A stretch of 64,000 nt of DNA, from positions 9,021 through 73,020 of the forward strand of contig JBHLOC010000015.1 of the NCBI GenBank assembly GCA_048940925.1. The letters run 5' to 3'. This DNA comes from Promethearchaeota archaeon. Its GTDB lineage: Archaea; Asgardarchaeota; Lokiarchaeia; Sigyniarchaeales; SOKP01. Both the position numbers and the translations under genes were made by a program. Positions 17,477 to 20,916 of the stretch are shown one piece after another; positions within the stretch are counted from its first letter, which is position 1; every line of letters begins with the position of its first letter. The notes below the pieces were generated by a model. That model was not told where the DNA came from. It saw only the letters and a list, made by a program, of their open reading frames with translations, and made no database searches.

Positions 17477-19126
17477 TTATTTCTTTTTCTTTTTCATTCT
17501 CTTCTTTAAAGCATTCGATGATATTCTTGCTCTTTGCTGTCCCTTTGCTGCCCAATAACTCTTTGCTGGAGCTTGTGAGACTTCTTTTTCTTCAATTTCG
17601 ATCTCTTCTAATTCATCATCTAAATATGATAATCCTTCTGTAAAATCTTGTTCAGCAAAAGACATATTTACTGATCGTAAGCGATTCAACTCGTTCAGCA
17701 TTTCTTTTTTCAAACCTGTTAACCTTTTTTTCGATTCAGTCGCTTTTCCTGCATAATATCCCTTTCCAGCAGCTTGAATGTTCATCATTACATTAAGTTT
17801 TTGGTCATATTCTGCTTTAAATTCATCCTCATCCTTCGTGACCTTTACTTTATCGTTTATAACTCTCATTCTTTTTTGACCTTCAGTATCCAGATAATCT
17901 ATTTGGAATTGAACTGGGATCTCTTCCTGATCATTTAATTCCTTAGTTGAATCGAGTTCTACAAATAATTCTCTATCTTCTGTAATTGCTCCTAAGTTAA
18001 TTTCTGAACCCTCAATAGCACCCTTCGAGCTATAGGCTCCTGTAATGCTTTTAATCAATATTTTGGGTGGAGTGATAATTTTTATTTTAACATCTTTACC
18101 TATATATTTCATTTGTCTTAATTCTGAAAAAATAGCTTCCATTTCTGAGCTTGAGATTAAATATAACATTCCACCTGTTTTATCTGTTAGTTTCCCTAGA
18201 GTTTCAAGACCCAATTCATTATTATCTCCTGAAATGGAGACCCCTACCACATCCACAATAATTTTGTATTGATTACATAAATCAGCCATATCTTCATAAA
18301 ATCTTTCTGCTCCAAGGCTAGTTCCTGAAAGATTACCTATTCCCTGGTTGGCAAGACCATCAGTTAACAATGTTATTCTTCCAGTATATTTAAAAAATTC
18401 AAAAGAGACAATAGCAAAATATAATGCGGGTCCTAATGCGGTCATATCCATGGATCTAAGGTCTTCAACTTTTTTAATCCAACCATCAGCAAATTCGCCA
18501 ATAGATCCTAAAAACCTATCTTTCTTTATAGACTTTTTCAACTGAGTTTTCATACCTTCTAAAGAAAATAGTAAATCACCACTAAAATTTAATGAATCCT
18601 TATCATATCTTAAATAATAATAAACTGAACTCTCAAATGCGATTAAAATGTATTTTGTTGAAGGTGAATTAATCTTAAAATCTTTTAGAGTTTGGACTAG
18701 AGATTTTTTTACAGCTTCAATTTTAGCACCACTCATACTTCCCGATATATCAATTACAGAAATATAAAGATCTCCCTCCGTAACCCCCATTTTTGTTATG
18801 TTTTCTTCTTCTTTTGATCCTTTTGTTAAAGCTTCTATTAGTATAAAATCTATATCATTTGGTAACTTCTCCTTTACTTTAGATCTATCTACTGTGTTAA
18901 TTGTCCCACAAAATTCACAGACATAGTAGGATCCTTTTTGGGAATCTACTTGAATTAAATCAATATCAGTAAAAATCGCTCCACAGGAATCACATTTAAT
19001 GGGATCATTATTTGTCTCATTCTTTGGCTTTCCAAGTTCTTTAAAGGCAATGGAATATAAATAGGGATACAATTCTTTTTTAGATGGCTTTTTTGTAAGA
19101 AATTTTTTAAATGCTCTATTAAACAT
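17477..19126 (-). CDS. Sec23/Sec24-like Zn finger + vWA domain protein
   Basis: PIKCDSCGA...YVCEFCGTIN Zn finger, vWA with DISGSM MIDAS, TALGPAL and LTDGLAN, then beta-sandwich and helical region. Start could be the ATG at 19126 or the GTG at 19135. Confidence 0.78.
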   Translation of the reverse strand: MFNRAFKKFLTKKPSKKELYPYLYSIAFKELGKPKNETNNDPIKCDSCGAIFTDIDLIQVDSQKGSYYVCEFCGTINTVDRSKVKEKLPNDIDFILIEALTKGSKEEENITKMGVTEGDLYISVIDISGSMSGAKIEAVKKSLVQTLKDFKINSPSTKYILIAFESSVYYYLRYDKDSLNFSGDLLFSLEGMKTQLKKSIKKDRFLGSIGEFADGWIKKVEDLRSMDMTALGPALYFAIVSFEFFKYTGRITLLTDGLANQGIGNLSGTSLGAERFYEDMADLCNQYKIIVDVVGVSISGDNNELGLETLGKLTDKTGGMLYLISSSEMEAIFSELRQMKYIGKDVKIKIITPPKILIKSITGAYSSKGAIEGSEINLGAITEDRELFVELDSTKELNDQEEIPVQFQIDYLDTEGQKRMRVINDKVKVTKDEDEFKAEYDQKLNVMMNIQAAGKGYYAGKATESKKRLTGLKKEMLNELNRLRSVNMSFAEQDFTEGLSYLDDELEEIEIEEKEVSQAPAKSYWAAKGQQRARISSNALKKRMKKKKK

Positions 19127-19211
19127 AAATTTCACGTATTTAGAAGTTTAAAATGTAAATAAAAAATGGATAATAAATAATTATGTAAAGTTTACAGAAA
19201 AAGGAATTATA

Positions 19212-19243
19212 ATCCCAAAACCTTTGCAAGGCAGTCATCGGAT
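19212..19243 (-). promoter_or_regulatory. Candidate SECIS-like stem-loop in the 3' UTR of the peroxiredoxin-like gene
   Basis: Minus strand ATCC-G-ATGA-CT-GCCTT-GCA-AAGGT-TTTG-GGAT. GC-rich island in an AT-rich spacer with AUGA...GA and paired ends. The fold is not fully canonical. Confidence 0.4.
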
Positions 19244-19265
19244 GTCTCATTTTTTTACATACGAA

Positions 19266-19796
19266 TCATTCTTCTTTGGGATTAATAATATATCTATCAA
19301 TAATTTTTGTCATCATATCTATTGTTGGTCTATCTGTCTTATCTTTACCCACATACTTCCATAAAATAATACTTTCTTTATTAATTAGGAATTTACTAGG
19401 CACAGCTTGTTTAATTTTATAATCCTTACCCCCACCAGAGGCAAACCAGTATACATCATATAGTTTAGCAATTTTAGCGCCACGATCGGAAATAATATCG
19501 ACTTTAAAGTTGTTCTCTTCTTTGAATTTTTTTAAGAGTCTAACACTATCACTTGCTATAGATATCAGCTTAATATTTCGCTTTTCAAATTCAGAAATAT
19601 GTTCTGTCAATAATTTTAAATGAGTTTTACAATGACTTCACCAATTTCCTCTAAAAAAGTCGATCAACACACCATTGAATTTTTTGAGAAGGTCATTTAG
19701 ATTTATGAGGTTATCGTATATATCTACAGTATCAATCAAGGGAGCTTTAGTCATTATATTTAATCCTTCTGGTCTTGGAGGTTCTTCGACGGTCAT
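19266..19796 (-). CDS. Peroxiredoxin-like (AhpC/TSA, thioredoxin fold) selenoprotein, Sec at codon 53
   Basis: One continuous frame from the ATG at 19796 reads ...VLIDFFRGNW-TGA(19640-19638)-SHCKTHL... and joins the ORF-track 114-aa ORF. The TGA occupies the first Cys of the FxRGxWCxxC motif. Confidence 0.88.
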
Positions 19797-19912
19797 TTTT
19801 ATCATCCATCTCAATTATAGTCCAAATTTGATTGATATGCTATGCACATACAATATAAAAATTTAAAGTTACTCCCTTAATAATATTAGTTTTCTTATAG
19901 TTCTATGTAATT

Positions 19913-20284
19913 CTAAGCAAACAATTCAAGAAATTGGCTTGTAATTCCAAAAAAATCTAAATCTACAAGTTTTTCAATATCACCCTTTAAGTATAACAGA
20001 GTTTCTCCTGTAGAATTAAGAATTATTCCTTTATCTTTTCTAAATTCAAAAACAACATTATCATCATATGAAGAAAAAATCTTATTTTCTTTGAAATATC
20101 CCTGCGTTTCACCTTCACTCCAAGTTATATCACCATTTTCTTTCAGAATTAGAAGTGTAGTTCCAGATTTATCTTTATACTTGTTTTTCTTCAAGTAACC
20201 TACCATTTTCTTTTTCTTATTTAAATACTTAGTACCATCAACAAAACTTATTAATTTATCCTTATTATTATAAGCTTCAATCAT
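19913..20284 (-). CDS. Hypothetical protein (predicted beta-rich)
   Basis: ORF with GGGTG SD 6 nt before the ATG at 20284. No family recognised. Confidence 0.6.
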   Translation of the reverse strand: MIEAYNNKDKLISFVDGTKYLNKKKKMVGYLKKNKYKDKSGTTLLILKENGDITWSEGETQGYFKENKIFSSYDDNVVFEFRKDKGIILNSTGETLLYLKGDIEKLVDLDFFGITSQFLELFA

Positions 20285-20382
20285 TAAATACACCCAAAAT
20301 ATATGTATTTAGAAAGTAATATAAATTTCAATTTAAATTATAGTTAAGAATAATCAATTGAACTAAAAAATTAAATCTTCTT

Positions 20383-20916
20383 TTATTTAGAGTACTTTTC
20401 AAAAAGAAAATTTGTCATTTCATGAAAAGCTTTCTCCACATTTTCTCCCGTTTTTGAGGATAGTTCAATAAAAGATGCCAGATTGTACTTTTTGGTTGCC
20501 AATATTCCATTTTGTCTTGTTACTGCTCTAAATTCATCTAAATCTGACTTTGAACCAATTAGCATAATTGGGATATCACCTGCATTCTCTCTAACAATTT
20601 GTGTCCAATCAGGAAGGTGATCTAATGAAATTTGATTAGTAATATCATATAGGAAGAAAGCTCCATTTGCTCCTTTACAATACTGTGATAACAAAAAGCG
20701 AAATCGTTCTTCACCGCCAAAATCCCAGATCTGTAATTTAACTTTTTTTCCTACGAAATCTATTGTCTTACTATAGAAATCAACTCCTATAGTTAGCTTA
20801 AGATCTTCCATAAAAAACCCCGAAATATATCTAAGGGTAAGGGACGTTTTCCCGACAGATGCATCCCCTAACATCAATAGTTTGTAAGTATAATCGTACC
20901 TGGTCATTTTTTTCAA
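20383..20916 (-). CDS. Rab-like small GTPase
   Basis: YTYKLLMLGDASVGKTS, TIGVDF, KLQIWDFGGEERF, SKSD and ELSSK. Rab-family motifs IGVDF and KLQIW present. Confidence 0.93.
   Translation of the reverse strand: MKKMTRYDYTYKLLMLGDASVGKTSLTLRYISGFFMEDLKLTIGVDFYSKTIDFVGKKVKLQIWDFGGEERFRFLLSQYCKGANGAFFLYDITNQISLDHLPDWTQIVRENAGDIPIMLIGSKSDLDEFRAVTRQNGILATKKYNLASFIELSSKTGENVEKAFHEMTNFLFEKYSK

Follow-up and report, generated by a model that had tools for sequence, protein, structure and literature searches.

The minus strand of the window, by which we mean the whole 64,000-nucleotide stretch of Promethearchaeota archaeon DNA analysed here, carries a PrxL gene that is very probably functional and decoded with selenocysteine (Sec). 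The gene is intact, its internal TGA codon is conserved among relatives, a SECIS element is present at its 3′ end, and the genome encodes the Sec machinery. These observations point to insertion of Sec at UGA-53. The product would be a 176-residue cytoplasmic thioredoxin-fold oxidoreductase, the Lokiarchaeal PrxL with a single Sec in a U-x-x-C box (PrxL.2-like). Coordinates of the gene and of its RNA elements are collected in Table 1.

Table 1. Features of the PrxL gene and its 3′ RNA element (positions of the window)
Feature	Position	Strand	Evidence
PrxL-type selenoprotein CDS	19266..19796	-	sequence, domain match, AF2 model
UGA codon 53, presumably read as Sec	19638..19640	-	TGA in 27/27 relatives; Cys in homologs
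TGT codon 56, putative resolving Cys of redox box, protein's only Cys	19629..19631	-	sequence, relatives, alignment
lokiSECIS core	19234..19271	-	covariance model 53.9 bits; compensatory stem changes
G(-1b)	19271	-	lokiSECIS core part
AUGA, holding stop UGA 19268-19266	19269-19266	-	lokiSECIS core part
9-nt SECIS arm, 5′	19265-19257	-	lokiSECIS core part
11-nt SECIS loop, seven A then UGAG	19256-19246	-	lokiSECIS core part
9-nt SECIS arm, 3′	19245-19237	-	lokiSECIS core part
GAC	19236-19234	-	lokiSECIS core part
Basal helix 5′ strand UAAUCCCAAA, in last codons I-N-P-K (19284-19275 paired with 19219-19210)	19275..19284	-	MFE + centroid fold
Side hairpin GCCUU-GCA-AAGGU, between GAC and basal helix 3′ strand	19220..19232	-	folds; 88% of cells paired
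Basal helix 3′ strand UUUGGGAUUA	19210..19219	-	folds
T5 run just 3′ of RNA element, likely transcription stop signal	19198..19202	-	seen in sequence

Direct translation of the minus strand, with TGA shown as U, gave a frame running from the ATG at 19796 to the TGA at 19268-19266, 176 codons followed by the UGA stop. The sole internal TGA (19640-19638) is codon 53, within FFRGNW-U-SHC, and opens the U-S-H-C redox box. When open reading frames were listed with translation table 11, the same frame appeared as a 58-aa N-terminal piece (19638-19814) and a 114-aa C-terminal piece with a TTG start (19266-19610). The preliminary description had reported an open reading frame track giving only the C-terminal 114 aa, and a frame from ATG 19796 through a single TGA with no other lesion in 176 codons; the listing and the translation bear out both statements. 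Its reading of the gene as an intact Sec-containing thiol oxidoreductase truncated by gene callers is supported by the Sec machinery, the TGA of relatives and the SECIS element described below. The Pfam AhpC-TSA domain matched across the TGA (residues 16-145, E = 3.9e-21), as did the Redoxin domain (2e-13). At the genome's 29.6% G+C, the chance of finding 52 stop-free codons upstream of the TGA is ~0.013. An alternative in-frame ATG is present at 19805, three codons upstream (MIKMTVEE), and the ATG at 19796 aligned with the Met of 13 relatives. Two separate small genes are ruled out, as the TGA falls within both the fold and the redox box.

To compare the gene among relatives we used 27 genomic loci from Promethearchaeota or Hermodarchaeota MAGs, with 71-85% identity. 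Codon 53 was TGA and codon 56 was TGT or TGC in every one of the 27. Pairwise differences at first, second and third codon positions were 0.277/0.162/0.558 upstream of the TGA (residues 17-46) and 0.164/0.076/0.462 downstream of it (residues 57-107). The third-position excess on both sides of the TGA indicates selection for coding in this frame both before and after it. We also searched 201 evenly sampled genomes of the phylum, with a match threshold of E <= 1e-20. Matches were confined to the GTDB family to which the window belongs, where 21 of 40 genomes had one, against 0 of 160 genomes in 26 other families, and each of the sampled-genome matches covering codon 53 had one or two in-frame TGA codons. 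The window's genome holds just one close PrxL copy, of the UxxC form. Six of the relatives (L022, L025, L026, L035, L036 and L037) carry a tandem UxxU PrxL paralog with two TGA codons and its own lokiSECIS, about 700 nt directly downstream of the UxxC gene; no such paralog was detected in the genome of the window. A Lokiarchaeal PrxL gene of the usual kind, with its SECIS, also occurs on an 8-kb contig (locus L041, DATKTW010000172.1) of a MAG labelled 'Candidatus Nanopelagicaceae bacterium', a contig which is probably mis-binned.

Protein searches returned two classes of homologs. The first comprises full-length proteins of 170-195 aa and 52-81% identity, with 'W' at position 53 and in some cases also at 56. 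This 'W' is a table-4 reading of TGA, as is shown indirectly by the 27 loci and by one database protein (P0033) that is the exact table-4 translation of the gene in locus L025, where both W codons are TGA. Three of the full-length proteins read with table 4 continue past the terminal ...KEW. The second class consists of more than 80 fragments of 102-120 aa that start after the TGA and are annotated as 'peroxiredoxin' or 'redoxin domain-containing protein' in Lokiarchaeota, Promethearchaeota and Thorarchaeota MAGs. The practical value of the PrxL result is one of annotation: gene callers reduce the protein to a 114-aa piece without the active site, and the public databases hold such fragments in number alongside proteins mistranslated with Trp.

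In an exhaustive HMMER search the PrxL clade was nested in a large F-[YF]-R-G-x-W-C-x-x-C family. At position 53 of the resulting 71-sequence alignment, 50 homologs have C, 19 have W (TGA) and one has S; R49, D104 and P133 are invariant. A CxxC motif is found in 50 of 70 distant homologs, and one gammaproteobacterial homolog, from a Panacagrimonas genome, has FFRGNWCPLC. Homologs of the read-through product had been predicted to carry Cys or TGA at codon 53 and to be conserved to either side of it, and this is what the relatives (TGA) and the distant homologs (Cys) displayed.

These comparisons bear directly on whether the TGA arose by nonsense mutation or by sequencing error, in a pseudogene or a misassembled gene that would yield a truncated protein or none. 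The truncation of the gene by standard gene calling and the abundance of C-terminal fragments in the databases are what such an origin would produce. The same TGA, however, recurs in all 27 independent assemblies and in each sampled match covering codon 53, the upstream 52 codons are under purifying selection, and a conserved SECIS is present. Moreover, neither the redox box nor strands 1-3 of the fold would be present in the 114-aa piece. A pseudogene or sequencing error is essentially refuted by the shared TGA, the upstream coding selection and the SECIS, and we give it almost no credence.

The lokiSECIS has been described as AUGA, a 9-bp stem, an 11-nt apical loop with adenines first and AG last, and GA, located directly 3′ of the coding sequence (PMC4989117). 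The 3′ regions of the 27 relatives aligned almost without gaps. In the SECIS stem 7 of 9 pairs showed compensatory changes and 88% of cells were paired, and the structure outscored all slid registers and 500 shuffles. A covariance model (R1) was built from the cores of 26 relatives, with the window left out of training. Its top match in the whole 4.8-Mb genome was C62:28254-28291(-), which is window 19234-19271(-), with 53.9 bits and E = 7e-8. With filters off this was the sole significant R1 match in the window, the runner-up scoring 12.6 bits. The upper stem of the window's element has 2 of 9 positions non-canonical (U.C internal, U.U beside the core), and is weaker than most relatives' stems. 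T-rich runs were found 3′ of the SECIS element in nearly all relatives, and the T5 run at this place in the window is likely to be an archaeal transcription stop signal, a terminator role that we read from the sequence. The expectation, drawn from published work on Lokiarchaeota, of a 3′-UTR SECIS resembling the eukaryotic ones was borne out by the R1 match and the covariation behind the PrxL gene.

The next R1 matches in the genome lay directly behind two HdrA-VhuD pairs, each with several in-frame TGA codons, and a further match lay behind a small membrane ORF with a C-K-R-U motif. As the matches stand behind selenoprotein genes, the motif marks selenoprotein genes in this genome. The small membrane ORF is single-helix (locus L055, SECIS at C63:88549-88586 (+), 33 bits), and its frame appears to pass through the SECIS to the UGA of the 3′ GA motif. 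A second thioredoxin-fold ORF, C12:8258-8647 (-) (locus L058), is 27% identical to PrxL and has one in-frame TGA, in H-U-P-Y-C; no type-I lokiSECIS was found behind it with R1 (10 bits only). Searches of Rfam with the eukaryotic, archaeal and bacterial SECIS models gave no family match to the window's element at E <= 10, and PMC4989117 likewise records none for the lokiSECIS. Over window 19211-19283 (-) Rfam returned sub-threshold C/D-box snoRNA matches, the best being snoR21 (25 bits against a cut-off of 45, E = 0.2), which probably reflect shared kink-turn sequence or chance.

The window is part of contig C62 of a 4.8-Mb assembly in 90 contigs, and this assembly was searched for the Sec pathway. 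A tRNA-Sec was found at C3:50049-50137, with 63.7 bits and thus over the Rfam cut-off, and was reported by ARAGORN as tRNA-SeC with anticodon TCA. SepSecS (E = 2.6e-115) lies 0.6 kb from it, and a SelB-like GTPase, scoring 240 bits against 242 for the bacterial model, is encoded on the same contig. A PSTK-like gene scored 139 bits, under the strict equivalog cut-off, and two adjacent selD genes each have one in-frame TGA. All five components that the preliminary description had named (tRNA-Sec, SelD, PSTK, SepSecS and SelB) were found, PSTK and SelB as "-like" proteins, which confirms that a complete Sec system, with SECIS elements of the eukaryote-like type, operates in this genome. Within 6.5 kb (C3:45426-51927) the genes for the SelB-like GTPase, tRNA-Sec and SepSecS are clustered.

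In principle Cys or Trp could be inserted at UGA-53, through near-cognate decoding or genome-wide reassignment of TGA, and some public gene calls do give W via table 4. In other selenoprotein systems, a shortage of selenium is known to lead to misinsertion of Cys at UGA. In this genome, however, TGA is a normal stop codon: it terminates 236 of 1797 ORFs of >=300 aa (13%), about as many as TAG (252), and it terminates PrxL itself. Genome-wide reassignment of TGA is ruled out by these counts. A complete Sec pathway and a SECIS are present, and the residue aligned in homologs is Cys, never Trp. We therefore consider Cys or Trp read-through very improbable, and continue with Sec as the residue encoded by UGA-53.

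AlphaFold2, run with the 71-sequence alignment, predicted a thioredoxin/BCP fold with a pLDDT of 94 and a pTM of 0.90, in which U53 is located at the N-terminus of helix 54-65. The top structural match was the BCP/PrxQ peroxiredoxin Bcp4 (3hjp), with TM 0.81/0.90; ResA came lower in the list. When the protein sequence was aligned to Aeropyrum pernix BCP (2cx3), C56 took the place of the peroxidatic Cys and U53 that of the Ser in PxxxS/TxxC, and the Pro and the catalytic Arg were matched by R49 and Q130, respectively. In the alignment to ResA, U53 and C56 coincided with the two Cys residues of WCxxC. Three of the four catalytic residues of canonical peroxiredoxins (PxxxT/SxxC and Arg) are thus missing, and position 130 is never Arg in the 71 homologs. 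The protein combines a BCP scaffold with a thioredoxin/ResA-type redox box. The TGA had been placed at the redox Cys of AhpC/Prx-like proteins. This holds in the sense that U53 is the counterpart of the leading Cys in the CxxC 'Prx-like' subfamily, and fails for the catalytic Cys, because the peroxidatic Cys aligns with C56. The loss of the three residues, together with the thioredoxin-type box, matches the definition of 'Prx-like' given by Mariotti et al. (PMC4989117). Best matches in NCBIfam include the SelL-related redox protein and ResA, and the cut-off for NF040769 (SelL-related) was not reached (49.3 bits against 120). By inspection, no hydrophobic segment is visible in residues 1-25.

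As to the reaction catalysed, Sec53 at the N-terminus of helix 1 would be the attacking nucleophile and Cys56 would resolve it to give a Sec53-Cys56 selenenylsulfide as the oxidised state, which a thioredoxin-type reductant would then reduce. This catalytic role is read from alignment, and a hydroperoxide or an oxidised thiol is our best guess at the substrate. The protein may instead be a genuine selenoprotein of another kind, a TlpA/ResA-type protein-disulfide reductase or isomerase that acts on specific clients rather than on peroxides. The coincidence of W-U-x-x-C with the WCxxC of ResA, the replacement of the peroxiredoxin Pro, Thr and Arg by R49, U53 and Q130, and the NCBIfam matches all argue for such an enzyme. 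The whole-chain fold, however, is nearest to BCP/PrxQ, and unlike ResA/TlpA the protein has no signal peptide or membrane anchor visible by inspection. Furthermore, a selenolate does not need the peroxiredoxin triad to reduce peroxides, glutathione peroxidases being an example. A disulfide reductase is a serious possibility, to which we give somewhat less than an even chance.

UGA-53 lies 371 nt upstream of the SECIS core, and the stop UGA of PrxL is itself the UGA of the AUGA in that core. Among the PrxL relatives, the stop is the core UGA in the window, L021 and L023 only. Most relatives have a UAA stop just after the 5′ strand of the basal helix (...NPK*), and L038-L045 have a UAG or UAA before this helix. 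In the decoding that we propose, tRNA-Sec, brought by archaeal SelB/EFSec, would read UGA-53 under the direction of the eukaryote-like kink-turn lokiSECIS ~370 nt downstream. The ribosome would already have melted the basal helix and the core by the time it arrives at codon 177, so that the UGA there would terminate translation. This logic of termination at the core UGA follows an argument of Mariotti et al. (PMC4989117), according to whom a UGA so near the SECIS cannot be recoded, since the ribosome has unfolded the element. They make the point in their Discussion for VhuU.1 of Lokiarchaeum, in which the AUGA of the SECIS doubles as the stop codon, and it amounts to a minimal-distance rule as in eukaryotes.

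Folding of single sequences placed the SECIS hairpin within a three-way junction, together with a basal helix and a side hairpin (Table 1). The fold energy for the window was -16.5 kcal/mol (z = -2.3), equalled by 3 of 200 shuffles. The basal helix was present in 26 of 27 single-sequence folds and showed some covariation, with CCCGUAA/UUACGGG in L038 and CCCUA/UAGGG in L037. In the alignment its pairing was 78%, an underestimate, as MAFFT mis-registers the helix in the L038-L045 subclade. The invariant G 19271 and C 19234 are candidates for the closing pair of a classical kink-turn, in which, judging from the base order, a three-base bulge (AAU) would precede the tandem G.A/A.G pairs. Inspection by eye showed the same layout 3′ of the HdrA-VhuD genes and of the small membrane gene, and in the computed folds all three arms were recovered for the C64 element and the window only. 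We suggest, tentatively and with rather more doubt than confidence, that the PrxL lokiSECIS is a k-junction-like three-way junction, whose basal helix and side hairpin are both needed for Sec insertion. Such a junction may, for example, be the docking site of an archaeal SECIS-binding factor. If this reading is true, the stop codon would be free to drift along the RNA, as it does across the relatives. The passages of PMC4989117 and PMC11227280 consulted on the element describe its core, stem and loop and mention lower stems, but no side hairpin or junction.

The genes flanking PrxL are of eukaryotic-signature type and are typical Asgard content. Downstream lies a Sec23/Sec24-like trunk/beta-sandwich protein with an N-terminal zinc-ribbon-like CxxC...CxxC (window 17477-19135 (-)), and upstream are a 5-fold beta-flower protein (window 19913-20293 (-)) and a Ras-family small GTPase (window 20383-20916 (-)). 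Further neighbours are an Rce1-like protease and NurA. No operon link to PrxL is evident among the neighbour genes.

The gene conforms to the published PrxL family in its AhpC/TSA domain, its UxxC box with no Cys elsewhere, its lokiSECIS and the archaeal/eukaryotic Sec pathway of its genome. The family, the UxxC box, the SECIS type, UGA stops and the overlap of AUGA with the stop codon were all published in 2016, and the present find adds a well-supported copy. Of specialist interest are the junction context of the SECIS, the overlap of the RNA with the last codons and the stop, and the missing peroxiredoxin Pro, Thr and Arg. The closest known system is PrxL.2, a Prx-like selenoprotein of Lokiarchaeota with one Sec in the redox box (Mariotti et al. 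2016, PMC4989117). The two have in common the U-x-x-C box with Sec first and no Cys outside it, the type of lokiSECIS directly behind the coding sequence, and the lineage (Lokiarchaeia/Promethearchaeota). Compared by published description rather than residue by residue, they show no difference in kind, and the window's gene is another genome's copy. A 'Prx-like protein' occurs in 43.2% of Sec-using Asgard genomes (Huang et al. 2024, PMC11227280), and PrxL was 'never experimentally characterized' according to Mariotti et al. (PMC4989117).

PrxL.1, with U-x-x-U and a putative diselenide (PMC4989117), is paralogous, with ~60% identity and the same SECIS type, whereas codon 56 in the window is TGT and not TGA. 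The protein shares with VhuU.1 a stop UGA that is also the UGA of the AUGA kink-turn, but belongs to a different protein family. With BCP/PrxQ (Sulfolobus solfataricus Bcp4 3hjp, A. pernix 2cx3) it shares the overall fold, and C56 stands on the peroxidatic Cys; the catalytic Pro, Thr/Ser and Arg of these enzymes are replaced in PrxL by R49, U53 and Q130. ResA/TlpA and the SelL-related Prx-like proteins of eukaryotes and bacteria (NF040769) have in common with it the W-C/U-x-x-C box at the N-terminus of helix 1, and ResA/TlpA differ in being membrane-anchored and extracytoplasmic.
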